A DNA stretch of 64,000 nucleotides. Source: a virus. Lineage: Duplodnaviria > Heunggongvirae > Uroviricota > Caudoviricetes. Shown here in pieces: positions 1 to 4,484 of the stretch (the stretch's first letter is position 1; every line of letters begins with the position of its first letter). Both the position numbers and the translations under genes were made by a program. The stretch covers positions 1 to 64,000 of the IMG/VR virus record IMGVR_UViG_3300045988_024527. One strand, given 5' to 3'. The notes beneath the pieces are model-generated. The model was not told the DNA's origin and made no database searches. It saw nothing but the letters and a program-made list of their open reading frames with translations.

Positions 1-218
1 AGAGAAATGAAGGTGGATTACATCCAACGCAGAAGCCTGTTTCGCTGATGAAAGCACTAATAGAACTAACTACTCAAGAAGGACAGCTAGTGATAGACCC
101 ATTTAGTGGTAGCGGTTCAACTCTTGTGGCAGCAAAAGAGCTTGGCAGAAATTATATAGGCTTCGAGTCTAACCCAGCATATGTAGAAATAAGCAAAAAA
201 AGATTAGAAGATAAATAA
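1..218 (+). CDS. DNA methyltransferase, C-terminal fragment (5' end outside window)
   Basis: Frame ending at TAA 216-218 translates ...[44 protein letters not shown]; the DPFxGSG(S/T)T motif is typical of N6-A/N4-C DNA methyltransferases. Confidence 0.7.
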
Positions 219-224
219 TTACTT

Positions 225-262
225 AAGTGACAGTATATTATTATCTGTCACTTTATTTATTT
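225..262 (+). terminator. rho-independent terminator-like hairpin
   Basis: Stem aagtgacag (225-233) / ctgtcactt (245-253) followed by T-rich tatttattt. Confidence 0.5.
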
Positions 263-284
263 AGTCTATCCTACTGTCTATTTT

Positions 285-464
285 ATGAATTTTTATCAAC
301 GCACTGACAGCCTCATACTTGGTCATCATTAGCATCCTTCAGATAAAGATTTTAACATTGGTCATAGGAAAAGCCTTAAGTTCTCTCAAGAACTAAAAGA
401 TGAACTTGACAAATGTGTTTTGCTATGTTCAAATTGCCATAAGGTAAGACATGCAAAGTATTAG
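285..464 (+). pseudogene. decayed HNH endonuclease remnant
   Basis: Frame 333-464 translates HPSDKDFNIGHRKSLKFSQELKDELDKCVLLCSNCHKVRHAKY (C-terminal HNH-type CxxCH motif) with no start codon; upstream ATG 285 frame hits TAG at 330-332. Confidence 0.45.
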
Positions 465-601
465 TTAGCAGATTACTTAGACGACCTTATCGGGTCTCCG
501 TGTAAGGAGGTGGTCTGTATCTCATGTTTTCCAGAACATGTAAATAATCTGAGAAGGGGCTTTACAGTGTTGAGATAATACGGTAAGCTTCGAATTATAG
601 T

Positions 602-684
602 ATGGGACGATGTTAAGACTCTAAGGCATGAGCAACGGCTTCCAACACCGTTTCAAAGGGGTTCAACTCCTCCGTCCCATGCCA
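602..684 (+). tRNA. tRNA-Trp (anticodon CCA), non-canonical long D-arm
   Basis: 7 bp acceptor atgggac/gtcccat, T-loop ttcaact 662-668, anticodon loop ttccaac with CCA at 642-644, encoded 3' CCA 682-684; 83 nt with about 7 extra nt in the D region. Confidence 0.5.
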
Positions 685-697
685 AAGTCTTATTAGG

Positions 698-785
698 GGT
701 AGGTAGCGGCTAATGGTAGCCAAACTGTCTTGAAAACAGTTGCCACTGTAGAGATACGGTGAGGGTTCGACTCCTTTACTTACCG
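698..785 (+). tRNA. tRNA-Ser (anticodon UGA), class II long variable arm
   Basis: Acceptor ggtaggt/acttacc, anticodon stem actgt/acagt with loop cttgaaa (TGA 731-733), long variable arm, T-loop ttcgact 766-772. Confidence 0.7.
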
Positions 786-1040
786 CCTAATAAGATTTAA
801 TTCCCGCGCTCGTCTAACAAGCTCGGTTTTTACTCGTGTATTGTCGTACACACTGACAAAGCACCTAGTAGGTGTCACGGAGAAGAGATAATATCAAGCT
901 CTCCAAAGGTTCTAGTCACCGGATTAAACAAGACTATGCAAAGACCTTTCTAGGTCTTTTTAGAGGGCTTCTAAGGTTATTACAGCTTGTTGTGGAACCT
1001 TGTTGCTTAGGTTCTTAGAAGTTCTCTAAAAAGGTTTAAT

Positions 1041-1118
1041 GGGAGATTGACGGTAATTGGTAAACCTATCTCGCTTAGAACGAGATGTTTGAGGGTTCGA
1101 ATCCCTTGTCTCCTACCA
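1041..1118 (+). tRNA. tRNA with anticodon UAG (Leu-type anticodon, short variable arm)
   Basis: Anticodon stem tctcg/cgaga with loop cttagaa (TAG 1076-1078), T-arm gaggg-ttcgaat-ccctt, acceptor gggagat/gtctcct with two G-U pairs, CCA 1116-1118. Confidence 0.5.
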
Positions 1119-1125
1119 AGTTAAT

Positions 1126-1201
1126 GCAGGTGTAGCAAAATGGTTATGCGGCTGACTCTTAATCAGTAAGACGATGGGTTCAATTCCCTCCACCTGTACC
1201 A
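1126..1201 (+). tRNA. tRNA-Lys (anticodon CUU)
   Basis: 76 nt; acceptor gcaggtg/cacctgt, anticodon loop ctcttaa (CTT 1158-1160), T-loop ttcaatt, CCA 1199-1201. Confidence 0.65.
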
Positions 1202-1206
1202 AAAAT

Positions 1207-1282
1207 GGGGTCATAGTTTATATGGTTAAAATTCGAGTTTTGCAAACTTGGGAACTGAGTTCAATTCTCAGTGACTCCACCA
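1207..1282 (+). tRNA. tRNA-Ala (anticodon UGC)
   Basis: 76 nt; acceptor ggggtca/tgactcc with G3-U70, anticodon stem cgagt/acttg with loop tttgcaa (TGC 1240-1242), T-arm ctgag-ttcaatt-ctcag, CCA 1280-1282. Confidence 0.8.
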
Positions 1283-1288
1283 ATTAGT

Positions 1289-1363
1289 GCATCCATAGTT
1301 TAAACGGGAAAATTACAGTCTTCCAAACTGAGGTTGAGGGTTCGATTCCCTCTGGATGCTCCA
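1289..1363 (+). tRNA. tRNA-Gly (anticodon UCC)
   Basis: Acceptor gcatcca/tggatgc, anticodon loop cttccaa (TCC 1322-1324), T-arm gaggg-ttcgatt-ccctc, CCA 1361-1363. Confidence 0.8.
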
Positions 1364-1370
1364 AATTAAT

Positions 1371-1447
1371 GCTGCTTTCGTATAATTGGCTATTACACAT
1401 CCCTTGTAAGGATGGAAATGCAGGTTCGAGTCCTGTGAGCAGCACCA
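1371..1447 (+). tRNA. tRNA-Thr (anticodon UGU)
   Basis: Acceptor gctgctt/gagcagc, anticodon stem catcc/ggatg with loop cttgtaa (TGT 1405-1407), T-loop ttcgagt, CCA 1445-1447. Confidence 0.8.
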
Positions 1448-1542
1448 ATTCAGAGGTCAAGTGAAAGACCGCTGGTGTCAACTGAAGACCGTAACAAATT
1501 CCACGGAGTTGAGTTAGCGGCACAACTTCAGACCTCTTTCAC

Positions 1543-1617
1543 ACTCGCTTAGTTTATATGGTAAAGCCCCATCCTTACAAGTTGGTGAAAAAGGTTCAAG
1601 TCCTTTAGTGAGTACCA
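1543..1617 (+). tRNA. tRNA-Val (anticodon UAC)
   Basis: Acceptor actcgct/agtgagt, anticodon loop cttacaa (TAC 1576-1578), T-arm aaagg-ttcaagt-ccttt, CCA 1615-1617. Confidence 0.7.
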
Positions 1618-1618
1618 T

Positions 1619-1696
1619 GTTCCAGTATCCCAATTGGCAGAGGATGCAAGCTCAAACCTTGTACTAGTGACGGTTCGAATCCGTCTTGGAACACCA
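1619..1696 (+). tRNA. tRNA with anticodon CAA (Leu-type anticodon, short variable arm)
   Basis: Acceptor gttccag/ttggaac, anticodon stem gcaag/cttgt with loop ctcaaac (CAA 1653-1655), T-arm gacgg-ttcgaat-ccgtc, CCA 1694-1696; 78 nt, variable region only about 6 nt. Confidence 0.55.
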
Positions 1697-1712
1697 ATTT
1701 TAGGAGAGCACT

Positions 1713-1820
1713 ATGAGTGATAAGTCCATCGCAAAAAAGTTTAGAGCGTCATATCTAAACAGACGTAAAAACAAAGTTTGTGAAAAACTGTATGGTGTTC
1801 TCGTAGGTAAGCAGGATTAG
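1713..1820 (+). CDS. hypothetical small protein (35 aa), MSDKSIAKKFRASYLNRRKNKVCEKLYGVLVGKQD
   Basis: ATG 1713 preceded by aggagag SD; stop TAG 1818-1820 lies inside the start of tRNA-Arg; below ORF-track size cutoff. Confidence 0.25.
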   Translation: MSDKSIAKKFRASYLNRRKNKVCEKLYGVLVGKQD

Positions 1821-1886
1821 TTCAAATGGATAGAGCAACAGTCTACGAAGCTGTTAATAGGGGTTCGAATCCCTTATCCTGCGCCA
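1811..1886 (+). tRNA. tRNA-Arg (anticodon ACG)
   Basis: 76 nt; perfect acceptor gcaggat/atcctgc, D-stem gttc/gagc, anticodon stem acagt/gctgt with loop ctacgaa (ACG 1845-1847), T-loop ttcgaat, CCA 1884-1886. Confidence 0.85.
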
Positions 1887-1904
1887 GATAAGCAAGAGGA
1901 ATTT

Positions 1905-2147
1905 ATGCAAACATTAATCGTCGTTGCACATGAAAACCCCAATAGTATTGAGTTTGTAAGGGTTCCCACTATAGATACCCACATTTTCTTGAAAGTCGGA
2001 TGGGAATGCGACCCAATAAAAGTAGGGAAATTTCTTGGTCATTACTTTGGTGGAAGACAATTTAAAAGTATCAATTTTGAGACAGTGTTACCAGAAAACT
2101 CAGAAACAGATAATAATACTTACCTCCTTACGAGGATTAGACAATGA
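1905..2147 (+). CDS. hypothetical protein (80 aa) embedded in tRNA array
   Basis: ORF track; abuts the next ORF; no recognisable motif. Confidence 0.35.
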   Translation: MQTLIVVAHENPNSIEFVRVPTIDTHIFLKVGWECDPIKVGKFLGHYFGGRQFKSINFETVLPENSETDNNTYLLTRIRQ

Positions 2148-2701
2148 GATACTTAAAATATGCTTCATGGATTTTCCTAGCTTTACTAGAACCATTTGCA
2201 GCAGCCCTAGCAGTCATCTTAGCACCTTTCGTAGTTCCATTCTACAGTGAGAAGAAAGGACATCTACCTTTTGGATTCAGATGGATGGAGACCTACGACA
2301 ACCCGATTGATGGTGATGAAGGTCACGTTAAAAGATGGGCTAAGATTAGAAAGATTGGTAAGCTGGGTGTCTACATGCAGAGAGTTGGATGGCTCTGGAG
2401 AAACAAAGCTTATAACTTCTCTTACCATGTATTAGGAAGAGATGTAAAAGATGTTACTAAGTGGAAAGGTAATATCAACGTAAGTTCTAACCCTGAAGAT
2501 AATCAGACTGGTTATCTCCTAATGTGGAACAGTAATGCTTGGGGATTATTCGCTTTTATCCCATCAATTAAAGTCTTTGGTAAACAGTTTTACTGGAGAA
2601 TTTATATTGGATGGAAACTAAAAAGTGTTGTCCCAGAAGAAAGAGCATTCTCAAGGGAAAGAGTTATGTTGGCATTCTTTATTCATCCACTGAGAAAGTA
2701 A
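2144..2701 (+). CDS. hypothetical membrane-anchored protein (185 aa)
   Basis: ORF track; hydrophobic N-terminus IFLALLEPFAAALAVILAPFVVPF, Trp-rich body; function not recognised. Confidence 0.5.
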   Translation: MRYLKYASWIFLALLEPFAAALAVILAPFVVPFYSEKKGHLPFGFRWMETYDNPIDGDEGHVKRWAKIRKIGKLGVYMQRVGWLWRNKAYNFSYHVLGRDVKDVTKWKGNINVSSNPEDNQTGYLLMWNSNAWGLFAFIPSIKVFGKQFYWRIYIGWKLKSVVPEERAFSRERVMLAFFIHPLRK

Positions 2702-2709
2702 AGATTTAA

Positions 2710-2785
2710 AGGGGATTAGTTTACAAGGTTAAAACCTCGGTCTTTGAAATCGAAGAAGTTGGTTCAATTCCAACATCCCCCGCCA
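2710..2785 (+). tRNA. tRNA-Gln (anticodon UUG)
   Basis: Anticodon stem tcggt/atcga with loop ctttgaa (TTG 2744-2746), T-arm gttgg-ttcaatt-ccaac, acceptor with A1-C72 mismatch, CCA 2783-2785. Confidence 0.7.
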
Positions 2786-2787
2786 AT

Positions 2788-2866
2788 GCTCCATTACTCC
2801 AATTGGCAGAGAGGCCAGACTTAAAATCTGTGTTATGTATCGGTTCGAATCCGATATGGAGTACCA
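2788..2866 (+). tRNA. tRNA with anticodon UAA (Leu-type anticodon, short variable arm)
   Basis: Acceptor gctccat/atggagt, anticodon loop cttaaaa (TAA 2822-2824), T-arm atcgg-ttcgaat-ccgat, CCA 2864-2866; 79 nt, variable region about 7 nt. Confidence 0.5.
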
Positions 2867-2871
2867 ATTTT

Positions 2872-2947
2872 AGCGGTATAGCATAACTGGCAATGCAACA
2901 GTCTCTGAAGCTGTCCTATTAAGGTTCAAATCCTTATGCCGCTGCCA
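2872..2947 (+). tRNA. tRNA-Gln (anticodon CUG)
   Basis: 76 nt; acceptor agcggta/tgccgct, perfect D-stem gcat/atgc, anticodon stem acagt/gctgt with loop ctctgaa (CTG 2905-2907), T-loop ttcaaat, CCA 2945-2947. Confidence 0.75.
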
Positions 2948-2978
2948 CTTCTAAGGGTTCTTACGAGAGTCCTTAAAT

Positions 2979-3054
2979 GTGGCCTTATCATAAATGGTAA
3001 TGACCCATGCTGTGAACATGGTCTATACGGGTTCAAATCCCGTAGGTCACCCCA
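2979..3054 (+). tRNA. tRNA-His (anticodon GUG)
   Basis: 76 nt; acceptor gtggcct/aggtcac, D-stem tcat/atga, perfect anticodon stem ccatg/catgg with loop ctgtgaa (GTG 3012-3014), T-arm acggg-ttcaaat-cccgt, CCA 3052-3054. Confidence 0.8.
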
Positions 3055-3059
3055 ATTTA

Positions 3060-3136
3060 TAGCCCAAGTAGCTTATATGGTTAAAGCGCGTGTCTGAAAA
3101 ACATGAGAAGAGGGTTCAAATCCCACTGGACTACCA
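3060..3136 (+). tRNA. tRNA-Phe (anticodon GAA), imperfect acceptor stem
   Basis: D-stem gctt/aagc, anticodon stem cgtgt/acatg with loop ctgaaaa (GAA 3096-3098), T-loop ttcaaat 3115-3121; best acceptor pairing tagccca/tggacta has one mismatch and irregular spacing. Confidence 0.45.
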
Positions 3137-3152
3137 ATTTCAAAGGTGCTTA

Positions 3153-3887
3153 ATGAAAGAGATGACAGAACAAGGTAAGGAGATTTTTAATCTCTTAAAA
3201 ACCGGTAAAGGGTTTTCTAACCCACTTATTACTGGTGCAGCAGTTCTCGGTGGAACCGTAGCTGCCTCTACATCACTTGTAAGCTCTATTAGCTCTGTAA
3301 CAGACCCTACAATGAAGGAGAAACTTGTTGCTGCTGGACTTACAACAGTCCTTCTAAACAGTTTTACAACAAGCCTGACAAGCACTACAGCAACCACTAA
3401 GACCTTAACAGATTATGGTCAAAAGTCTATTGATGAGTTTTCATCACGTATGCAGGTAGCAAAGGGATACTCCAATGTTATGGGTGCAGCAGGAGAACAA
3501 GTTGGTTGTACACCATTCAGTGGTATTATGGGTGTTGCTACAGAGTATGGTCAAAAAGCTATTGACATGATTAACAGTACACTAGATAGTGTTAATGGTG
3601 TGTTAAGTGACTTACAAGACGCTATTGACAAGGGTCTTGATACTGTTTCTGATTTAGCTAACCAAGCTGTCAGTAAGATTAATGAAGGTATTTCAAAGAT
3701 TACAGCTTATGCAGATGAAGTTGTGCAGATGATTGAAGAAGAAGCTGCCCTTATTGCAGAGTACCTTAAAACGAATATCAATGGGTTCTTAGCAGGTATC
3801 TTACCAGACTGGTTTGATGATGCCTGTAAAACTGGTGTAATTGACACTATTGCAACACCAGAAATGAAGAGCGCATTACAGAAATAA
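3153..3887 (+). CDS. hypothetical protein (244 aa) embedded in tRNA array
   Basis: ORF-track frame 3090-3887; start moved to ATG 3153 (SD-like aaagg upstream) because 3090-3136 overlaps tRNA-Phe; Ser/Thr-rich N-terminus, no recognised domain. Confidence 0.5.
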   Translation: MKEMTEQGKEIFNLLKTGKGFSNPLITGAAVLGGTVAASTSLVSSISSVTDPTMKEKLVAAGLTTVLLNSFTTSLTSTTATTKTLTDYGQKSIDEFSSRMQVAKGYSNVMGAAGEQVGCTPFSGIMGVATEYGQKAIDMINSTLDSVNGVLSDLQDAIDKGLDTVSDLANQAVSKINEGISKITAYADEVVQMIEEEAALIAEYLKTNINGFLAGILPDWFDDACKTGVIDTIATPEMKSALQK

Positions 3888-3888
3888 T

Positions 3889-3981
3889 GGAAGATTAACC
3901 CTAAAAGGTAAGGGAGCAGTTTGCTAAACTGCCAGTAGCTGAGAAATCGGTGTACCAGTTCAAGTCTGGTATCTTCCTCCA
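3889..3981 (+). tRNA. tRNA-Ser (anticodon GCU), class II long variable arm
   Basis: 93 nt; perfect acceptor ggaagat/atcttcc, perfect anticodon stem gcagt/actgc with loop ttgctaa (GCT 3923-3925), about 21 nt variable arm, T-arm accag-ttcaagt-ctggt, CCA 3979-3981. Confidence 0.85.
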
Positions 3982-3985
3982 ATTT

Positions 3986-4061
3986 GAATCCGTGACAGAA
4001 ATGGCTATGTGCCTGTCTGCAAAACAGGTTTATAATGGTTCAAGTCCCTTCGGATTCTCCA
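3986..4061 (+). tRNA. tRNA-Cys (anticodon GCA)
   Basis: 76 nt; perfect acceptor gaatccg/cggattc, perfect anticodon stem cctgt/acagg with loop ctgcaaa (GCA 4019-4021), T-loop ttcaagt, CCA 4059-4061. Confidence 0.8.
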
Positions 4062-4098
4062 AGTTATTTTACTCTCTCTCAATTAAAATAATAATAAT

Positions 4099-4158
4099 GC
4101 CCTGCTATAAGTATTCTTCCTTTCGCTACCGAAGAGTATTTTTAGACAGGGCTTTTTT
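4099..4158 (+). terminator. terminator-like long hairpin ending the tRNA array
   Basis: gccctg (4099-4104) pairs cagggc (4147-4152), followed by tttttt 4153-4158. Confidence 0.45.
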
Positions 4159-4233
4159 ACAGAGTTATACTTTATAGGAAGACTTATACAGTATGTCTCT
4201 GACGTACATTGTGGTTTCTCCTTGACGGTCTCT

Positions 4234-4257
4234 GTGCCGTCTTTTTTAAGGGGAAAC
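4234..4257 (+). terminator. rho-independent terminator
   Basis: Stem gacgg/ccgtc with loop tctctgtg, then tttttt 4252-4257. Confidence 0.55.
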
Positions 4258-4283
4258 AATATTAATTATTTGGAGAAAACATA

Positions 4284-4484
4284 ATGAGCGAGAACGTTTA
4301 TAAAGAACTTTATGAAGCTAACAAGAAGTTAGAGTTTATGCAGAATACTATCATGGCAATTGCAGACAGATTATCTGTAGCAACAGGTATTGATATTAAA
4401 GAAGCATCTATGGATGCACTTCTTGATGCTGTTGATGCAAAGTTCGAAGTTAAGAAAGAAGAGACTGCTACAGACTCTGAATAA
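4284..4484 (+). CDS. hypothetical small protein (66 aa) immediately upstream of terminase large subunit
   Basis: ORF track; ggag SD before ATG; position would suit a small terminase subunit or accessory protein but no motif recognised. Confidence 0.4.
   Translation: MSENVYKELYEANKKLEFMQNTIMAIADRLSVATGIDIKEASMDALLDAVDAKFEVKKEETATDSE

Follow-up and report, generated by a model that had tools for sequence, protein, structure and literature searches.

Armless type I tRNA-Leu genes in a Felix O1-like phage and in viral tRNA clusters

Leucine tRNAs without a long variable arm form a rare kind, type I tRNA-Leu. In Streptomyces coelicolor, a chromosomal tRNA-Leu(CAA) of this kind, with a 5-nucleotide (nt) variable loop, A73 and U8-A14, stands beside long-arm isoacceptors and is charged by that bacterium's leucyl-tRNA synthetase (LeuRS) (PMC6614811). 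Animal mitochondrial tRNA-Leu, for example human mt-tRNA-Leu(UUR), combine short variable regions and Leu anticodons with the determinants A73 and A14 (PMC9976931). A tRNA-Leu(UAG) of a mycobacterial tRNA array was remarked upon, in one sentence, for having a short loop where the chromosomal isoacceptor has a long one (Behra et al. 2019, PMC6582537). Here we describe three such genes in a 64,000-nt stretch of viral DNA (IMG/VR record IMGVR_UViG_3300045988_024527, positions 1 to 64,000; hereafter the window). They are tRNA-Leu(UAG) at 1041-1118, tRNA-Leu(CAA) at 1619-1696 and tRNA-Leu(UAA) at 2788-2866, all on the plus strand, and they are best filed as phage members of the type I kind. Judged from their sequences, they are probably genuine leucine-accepting type I elongator tRNAs, charged by the host LeuRS and decoding A/U-rich Leu codons.

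The window tRNAs differ from each of these precedents. The S. coelicolor gene is chromosomal and has C48, whereas the window tRNAs are phage-encoded, have U48 and an E. coli-type D arm, and would need an enterobacterial LeuRS; the Streptomyces loop, ACAGC, differs by a single base from ACAGU, the most frequent phage motif, and this is the sole hint of common descent. Mitochondrial tRNA-Leu have their own mitochondrial LeuRS and a floppy, reduced structure, whereas the phage tRNAs retain full-size D and T loops, G18G19 and the T loop UUCGAAU. The short loop of the mycobacterial array was not analysed further by Behra et al., nor linked to phages generally or to LeuRS identity; we confirmed a like form in Mycobacterium phage prophiT49-2. 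With E. coli type II tRNA-Leu, finally, the window tRNAs share the D-arm architecture, A14, A15, G18G19, A20a, U48, A73, the tertiary positions of the T loop and the anticodons, but the E. coli molecules are 85-87 nt long with a variable arm of 13-15 nt, and the anticodon-loop flanks (positions 32, 37 and 38) are different.

Genes were called with ARAGORN, and the Rfam tRNA covariance model RF00005 (gathering score 29) served as an independent program. Both gave exactly the boundaries that an earlier note, made by hand-folding the sequence, had proposed: 78, 78 and 79 nt including an encoded CCA, with variable regions of 5 to 7 nt. The well-defined acceptor and T arms of that note are 7-bp acceptor and 5-bp T stems in the ARAGORN cloverleaves, and all three tRNAs have the T loop UUCGAAU, a 7-nt anticodon loop and a discriminator A (A73 of tRNA-Leu(UAG) is at 1115). 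The program folds also place the same anticodons, UAG at 1076-1078, CAA at 1653-1655 and UAA at 2822-2824, which disposes of the misassignment that the note had feared. RF00005 was matched over model positions 1-71 of 71, with 44.5 bits for UAG, 43.6 for CAA and 47.5 for UAA (E-values 2e-7 to 4e-8), far beyond chance. The variable regions are TGTTT (1086-1090, 5 nt), ACTAGT (1663-1668, 6 nt) and GTTATGT (2832-2838, 7 nt), respectively, and none contains an extra stem. Type II tRNAs have a variable region of more than 10 nt forming a stem-loop, and none of the three does; each combines a Leu anticodon, a variable loop of at least 5 nt, A73 and A14, as type I tRNA-Leu do. The architecture is thus non-canonical for bacteria, as had been noted. 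The same ARAGORN run gave normal long variable arms to both serine tRNAs of the cluster, tRNA-Ser(UGA) (698-787, 90 nt) and tRNA-Ser(GCU) (3889-3981, 93 nt), both on the plus strand; the short form is therefore Leu-specific and not a program artefact.

The window belongs to a Felixounavirus (Felix O1-like), the region being 98% identical to Escherichia phage EC6. At least 80% of a 3.8-kb query was covered by 209 phage records, nearly all of them Felix O1-like (Felixounavirus and relatives, Ounavirinae), and many of these are annotated with "tRNA-Leu (x3)". Individually, tRNA-Leu(UAG) matched 343 phage records, among them two alleles (identities of 100% and about 90%) as well as T5-like homologues (about 76%); tRNA-Leu(CAA) matched 313, among which Erwinia Kolesnikvirus reached 84% and phages of Mycobacterium and Streptomyces 76-77%; and tRNA-Leu(UAA) matched 273, of which 216 at 99% identity or more. 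Each of the three genes has been kept, at 90-100% identity, in some 270-340 sequenced phage genomes. Canonical long-arm homologues, which the earlier note had asked after, were not what these positions held in relatives: the short form recurs in the orthologues from Felixounavirus, Mooglevirus and Kolesnikvirus. As genes, the three are already known. The 2010 genome paper of Felix O1 lists three Leu genes of 78, 78 and 79 nt with Cove scores of 46-58, the missing arm passing unremarked (PMC3185647), and the word "variable" does not occur in a 2025 computational study of the tRNAs of the related Shigella phage Sf14 (PMC12482277). In the literature searched, which covered few subscription journals, we found no earlier description of armless tRNA-Leu in phages, the nearest being the Streptomyces study and the one-sentence mycobacterial remark. 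That armless tRNA-Leu are frequent in, and characteristic of, phages and mobile tRNA arrays appears to be unreported.

The amino acid identity of the three tRNAs was examined position by position against E. coli K-12 leuQPV, leuW, leuX and leuZ. The determinants of E. coli LeuRS are A73, A14, A15-U48, G18G19/U55C56, U54-A58 and A20a (Giegé and Eriani, PMC9976931; Fan et al., PMC6614811), and, by sequence, the set is complete in all three window tRNAs: A73, U8, A14, A15, U48 (the last base of the variable region), U54 and A58 are present in each. The D arms of tRNA-Leu(CAA) and tRNA-Leu(UAA) are the E. coli Leu D arm, position for position (U8, N9, a 3-bp stem, N13, A14 A15 U16 U17 G18 G19 N20 A20a G21 A22, the 3' strand of the stem and N26; N20 is C20 in tRNA-Leu(CAA)), and that of tRNA-Leu(UAG) is of the same type plus one nucleotide, with a weaker stem. 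Neither G3-U70, read by AlaRS, nor an anticodon read by another synthetase is found in any of the three. The earlier note had taken the long arm for a LeuRS identity element. By most published work this is wrong for an E. coli-type LeuRS: leucylation does not correlate with the sequence and fold of the arm, and arm-deleted tRNA-Leu variants are still active (reviewed in PMC9976931).

Could the bodies belong to another type I isotype, with a shifted anticodon, or could the genes be pseudogenes or gene-finder artefacts? The first has a precedent in human Leu-CAA-5-1 (PMC8450103), and for the second it may be said that neighbouring genes are labelled tRNA-OTHER or pseudo in some deposited records. 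The Leu-type D arm (3-bp stem, 11-nt loop, G18G19 and A20a placed as in Leu) occurs in 68-75% of long-arm tRNA-Leu and 56-69% of short ones, but in 0-1% of other isotypes. We then defined a Leu-type body as this D arm together with U48 and A73, and scored it among 983 viral tRNAs with short variable regions. Of the 39 tRNAs that have it, 38 bear a Leu anticodon (Fisher p ~ 2e-57); in the bacterial genome control described below the figure was 8/8. All three window tRNAs have a Leu-type body, and five different Leu anticodons were seen on it. The tRNAscan-SE 2.0 isotype models place Leu first for all three orthologues in Shigella phage Sf14 (scores 67.4, 49.1 and 60.2; PMC12482277). With the strong covariation reported below, and with neither G3-U70 nor another synthetase's anticodon present, both the shifted-anticodon and the artefact explanations are effectively refuted, and we give them next to no credence. 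The altered identity that the earlier note had envisaged likewise has no support, given the complete determinant set, the body-anticodon linkage and the Leu-first models. A whole-sequence nearest-neighbour isotype classifier, for which 571 canonical tRNAs of bacteria served as reference and the anticodon and variable region were masked, was set aside as uninformative, since its positive control recovered only 2 of 13 non-Leu tRNAs of the window.

The sole exception among the 39 Leu-body tRNAs is a short tRNA of locus L065 (IMGVR_UViG_3300045996_000252) that has a full Leu-type body (D region TAGCCCAACATGGCAGAGGCG, loop ACAGT, A73) and the anticodon UAC, for Val. Because LeuRS ignores the anticodon, this tRNA could put Leu at GUA codons; it could also be an error.

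Conservation was measured on 75 distinct short tRNA-Leu from phages and arrays, a very diverse set. Positions of the acceptor, anticodon and T stems are paired in 94% of cases, against 56 ± 1% in shuffles (maximum 59%), and several compensatory pair types occur at 16 of 17 stem pairs. The anticodon loops are canonical: they are 7 nt long, have U33, and a purine occupies position 37. The discriminator is A73 in every one of the 75 sequences, and U48 is kept by 73 of them. For the variable region, lengths of 5, 6 and 7 nt were counted in 65, seven and three sequences, respectively; a 4-nt region, though common in other isotypes of the same loci, was found in 0/75. A 5-nt variable loop including nucleotide 48 is also the minimum for leucylation found experimentally (PMC6614811). 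A LeuRS identity set so conserved among such diverse sequences is hard to explain without selection by LeuRS.

Several observations weigh against charging by the host enzyme. The type I tRNA-Leu(CAA) of S. coelicolor was reportedly not charged by E. coli LeuRS, which was described as a type II-only enzyme (Fan et al. 2019, PMC6614811). By the same account, the leucine-specific domain of E. coli LeuRS prefers a tRNA whose variable loop is large, and in the crystal structure the C-terminal domain of the enzyme contacts arm nucleotides 47f-47i (PMC6614811), so that the efficiency of leucylation of the window tRNAs may be reduced. Among the window genes, tRNA-Leu(UAG) is the least regular, with its additional nucleotide in the D region and its weak D stem; the anticodon stem of tRNA-Leu(UAA) is mismatched at its top (C27-U43). 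The T5 tRNA-Leu(UAG) that yields an amber suppressor was dropped as proof of function, as the T5 gene is the 85-nt, long-arm form. One could then suppose that the window tRNAs are not substrates of enterobacterial LeuRS at all, but un- or poorly charged tRNA-like decoys, regulators, primers or relics. The failure of the E. coli enzyme on a natural type I tRNA-Leu and the irregular D arm of tRNA-Leu(UAG) would fit, as would the stable tRNA-like RNAs held by T5-like and Felix O1-like tRNA regions. However, the rejected Streptomyces loop ends in C48, not U48 (PMC6614811), and armless variants of E. coli tRNA-Leu are active. The Streptomyces tRNA may have been rejected for want of A15-U48, which the phage tRNAs keep; on this difference, E. 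coli LeuRS would be expected to accept the phage tRNAs, perhaps less efficiently. The conservation of the E. coli identity set in the 75 sequences, the variable loop that stops at the leucylation minimum, the canonical anticodon loops and the fit of the anticodons to codons over-used by the phage (see below) also speak against non-substrates, which we regard as improbable.

We next asked how common the short form is. IMG/VR contigs were sampled by a pattern requiring only two adjacent tRNAs with a common T-loop, in two rounds: sample 1 gave 120 loci with 1234 tRNAs, and sample 2, using a different T-loop motif, 113 new loci with 976 tRNAs, for 233 loci in total. In sample 1, short forms made up 49/109 of tRNA-Leu (27/82 when tRNAs carrying the search motif are left out), 0/96 of tRNA-Ser and 1/51 of tRNA-Tyr. 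Sample 2 gave 35/88, 1/95 and 0/35, respectively, so that the combined frequencies are 84/197 (43%) for Leu, 1/191 for Ser and 1/86 for Tyr. As a control, the search pattern of sample 1 was applied to bacterial genomes, where the median locus has 3 tRNAs. Short tRNA-Leu amounted to 9/50, and they were confined to four loci: three contigs of Acidobacteriota metagenome-assembled genomes (MAGs), with 11, 29 and 31 tRNAs within 8 kb, and one 4.5-kb MAG contig. In the 26 ordinary chromosomal Leu-bearing loci the count was 0/41. Viral loci and mobile tRNA arrays are strongly enriched for short tRNA-Leu.

The opposite anomaly was also seen: tRNA-Ile(UAU) of 90-93 nt, with a variable region of 21-26 nt, occurs in Acidobacteriota MAG arrays (L159, 1444-1533; L211, 1342-1434) and in viral loci too. 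In viral sample 1, the variable region is at least 9 nt long in 35/971 tRNAs other than Leu, Ser and Tyr.

BLAST searches with each window tRNA-Leu returned ungapped homologues well beyond the Ounavirinae. ARAGORN was run on the phage loci fetched, and tRNA-Leu of 74-78 nt were recorded as short. Short tRNA-Leu were found in T5-like DT571/2, in Acinetobacter phage phiAbaA1 and in Streptomyces phage JXY1; there were two in Mycobacterium phage prophiT49-2 and in Myxococcus phage Mx1; three in Aeromonas phage AhSzw-1 and in Erwinia phage phiEa104, the latter including an AAG anticodon; and Rhodococcus phage Trina has one short and two long. The hosts of these cultured phages span Proteobacteria, Actinobacteria and Myxococcota. 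In the same phages the long arm is kept by tRNA-Ser and almost all tRNA-Tyr; a rare exception is the tRNA-Tyr(GUA) of prophiT49-2 (L005, 3311-3388), which is only 78 nt long and apparently lacks a full long arm.

The short tRNA-Leu group with one another by sequence. Comparing stems and T loop, the nearest neighbour outside the own locus is itself short for 49 of 73 short tRNA-Leu, against 30 ± 5 after permutation of the labels (at most 47 in 2000 rounds). G occupies position 9 in 60/61 long tRNA-Leu, and A in about half of the short ones; position 13, G or A in the long form, is mostly C in the short. At least two short body types can be recognised, UA-NCC-C-AAYUGGCAGA-GGN and a T5/Aeromonas-like UG-AUG-G-AAUUGGCAUA-CAU. 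Within Tequintavirus, the same slot, next to tRNA-Ala in both phages, holds an 85-nt long-arm tRNA-Leu(UAG) in T5 (L254, 11625-11709, minus strand) and an unrelated 77-nt short one in DT571/2 (L002, 11997-12073). It looks as if one or a few phage-borne short lineages have spread by exchange, rather than many local deletions having occurred, as far as such short sequences can tell. T5 has a gene for an HNH endonuclease (hegC) in the interval from tRNA-Leu to tRNA-Ser; it is absent from that place in DT571/2.

What would these tRNAs do for the phage? The G+C content of the phage is 39.3%, and its Leu codon fractions are 0.26 for UUA, 0.28 for CUU, 0.11 for CUA and 0.15 for CUG. In E. coli these are about 0.13, 0.10, 0.04 and 0.50. 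By these figures, the phage uses A/U-rich Leu codons two to three times more than E. coli, and the three anticodons cover the side of the Leu box that is least served by the host. The working that we propose, from expression through charging by the host enzyme to decoding on the ribosome, is inferred and runs as follows. The three tRNA-Leu would be transcribed along with the neighbouring tRNAs and then processed, CCA addition not being needed because CCA is encoded. Host LeuRS would load them with leucine; tRNA-Leu(UAA) would then read UUA and UUG, tRNA-Leu(CAA) UUG, and tRNA-Leu(UAG) CUA and its wobble partners. Codon compensation is the reading held in the Felix O1 (PMC3185647) and Sf14 (PMC12482277) papers, the former crediting a translational benefit to the UUA tRNA. 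A CRISPRi-ART study of the Felix O1-like phage SUSP1 was consulted and does not resolve individual tRNAs.

The decoding properties may depart from those of the host tRNAs. In tRNA-Leu(UAG) of the window (1076-1080) and its Sf14 orthologue, G36 is followed by A37 (loop CUUAGAA), whereas the host isoacceptor has G37 (UUUAGGU), the m1G37 site in E. coli. The loop of tRNA-Leu(CAA) is CUCAAAC against UUCAAAA in the host, and its C38 breaks the A36-A37-A38 motif. The modification state of these two tRNAs, and hence their reading properties, may differ from the host's.

As to the arm, the long stem-loop would have been lost in phage tRNA-Leu lineages while all features read by enterobacterial LeuRS were kept. 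The arm would be dispensable in Leu but not in Ser or Tyr, since it is a determinant for SerRS and TyrRS and not for bacterial LeuRS. Neutral loss or streamlining is a sufficient explanation. A further layer may be added: functional tRNA-Leu could have lost the arm by selection to evade effectors that read it, keeping a Leu pool available under attack. This is possible but doubtful. Phage tRNAs and tRNA arrays are now seen as anti-defence (PMC10264068; PMC11555353; PMC12803027), and the long arm is a known anchor for one bacterial toxin: MenT3 binds the long variable loop, whose deletion protects tRNA-Ser and whose grafting sensitises tRNA-Met, although it prefers Ser over Leu (PMC11541572). 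Eukaryotic antiviral Schlafens are reported to cleave type II tRNAs, including tRNA-Leu(UAA), and VapC52 to cut tRNA in the variable or anticodon loop. Our own data offer the enrichment in viral loci and mobile arrays with absence from the 26 ordinary chromosomal loci, the clustering of short forms by sequence, the long/short swap of tRNA-Leu(UAG) at one Tequintavirus locus, and anticodon loops unlike the host's.

On the other hand, no effector against tRNA-Leu or the type II class in Enterobacteria was found in the literature searched. The bacterial Schlafen that has been studied cuts the anticodon arm at 30/31 with no reported preference for type II tRNAs, and so lends no support to type II-directed cleavage. 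Phage tRNA-Ser and tRNA-Tyr retain the arm and would thus still be exposed, and the restriction of the loss to Leu is equally explained by neutral loss permitted by LeuRS. The decoys, or substitutes for host tRNAs cleaved by anticodon nucleases, that the earlier note had suggested are possible; we know of no Leu-specific host nuclease. Nuclease-resistant tRNAs are described for phages such as T5 (van den Berg et al. 2023, Azam et al. 2024). They depart from their host counterparts in ways that could keep host effectors from recognising them, as the window tRNAs do in the anticodon loop, but the documented mechanism there is anticodon-loop mutation against known anticodon nucleases (Lys, Tyr and others); neither loss of an entire arm nor an effector directed at Leu is described in the literature searched. 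That a type I-looking, LeuRS-competent tRNA-Leu escapes arm-reading bacterial effectors, whether MenT-like nucleotidyltransferases, Schlafen- or VapC-like nucleases or some undiscovered kind, is accordingly a tentative and rather unlikely proposal.

The three genes are part of a cluster of 16 tRNAs at 698-4061, all called by ARAGORN on the plus strand, many of them spaced 1-8 nt apart, with small open reading frames interspersed; orthologous clusters are annotated in FSL SP-010 and Felix O1 (Table 1 of PMC3185647). tRNA-Leu(CAA) begins 1 nt past tRNA-Val, and tRNA-Leu(UAA) 2 nt past tRNA-Gln(UUG). tRNA-Ser(UGA) is the sole tRNA of the cluster without a full encoded CCA, ending in GCC followed by U, and among Rfam models it fits tRNA-Sec best, with 39 bits, under the gathering score of 47 for that model. 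Counts of sigma-70 promoters and terminators in 200-4400 were not above those of shuffles (13 versus 9.3 ± 3.0, and 3 versus 3.0).

Just upstream of tRNA-Ser(UGA), an uncalled tRNA-like element at 600-685 (plus strand) has a cloverleaf-like RNAfold structure (-28.4 kcal/mol, z = -3.1). Folded by hand, it has an 8-bp acceptor stem AUGGGACG/CGUCCCAU (A1-U72), a discriminator G and an encoded CCA; its T stem of 4 bp carries the loop UUCAACU, and the anticodon-like loop, CUUCCAACA, is 9 nt long and includes CCA. A1-U72, G73 and CCA resemble the E. coli tRNA-Trp identity set, and ARAGORN called no tRNA-Trp in the window. Neither a relaxed-threshold ARAGORN run nor an Rfam scan supported this fold, and the other spacers of the cluster likewise gave no credible relaxed ARAGORN call. 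Two of these, 930-1040 and 1448-1542 (plus strand), have unusually stable folds (z = -3.2 and -3.0) and are candidates for processing hairpins or for stable RNAs of the sort annotated in the T5 tRNA region as "stable RNAs of unknown function". A weak Rfam match to MIR473 at 946-1045 is presumably due to chance.

The Streptomyces gene is the only bacterial exception studied biochemically, and here about 40% of the tRNA-Leu in two independent viral samples are armless. For annotation, this is a warning against discarding short phage tRNA-Leu calls as pseudogenes; short tRNA-Leu offer a simple sequence marker for tRNA genes derived from phages or mobile elements. If the loss proved adaptive, armless tRNA-Leu would be a genomic sign of an arms race in which type II tRNAs are the stake, and would suggest an undiscovered Leu- or type II-directed defence in Enterobacteria. 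Armless phage tRNA-Leu would be natural, evolution-tested minimal substrates for bacterial LeuRS, and they provide a sharp test of the claim that the E. coli enzyme charges only type II tRNAs, the prediction being that A15-U48 separates the acceptable type I substrates from the others.

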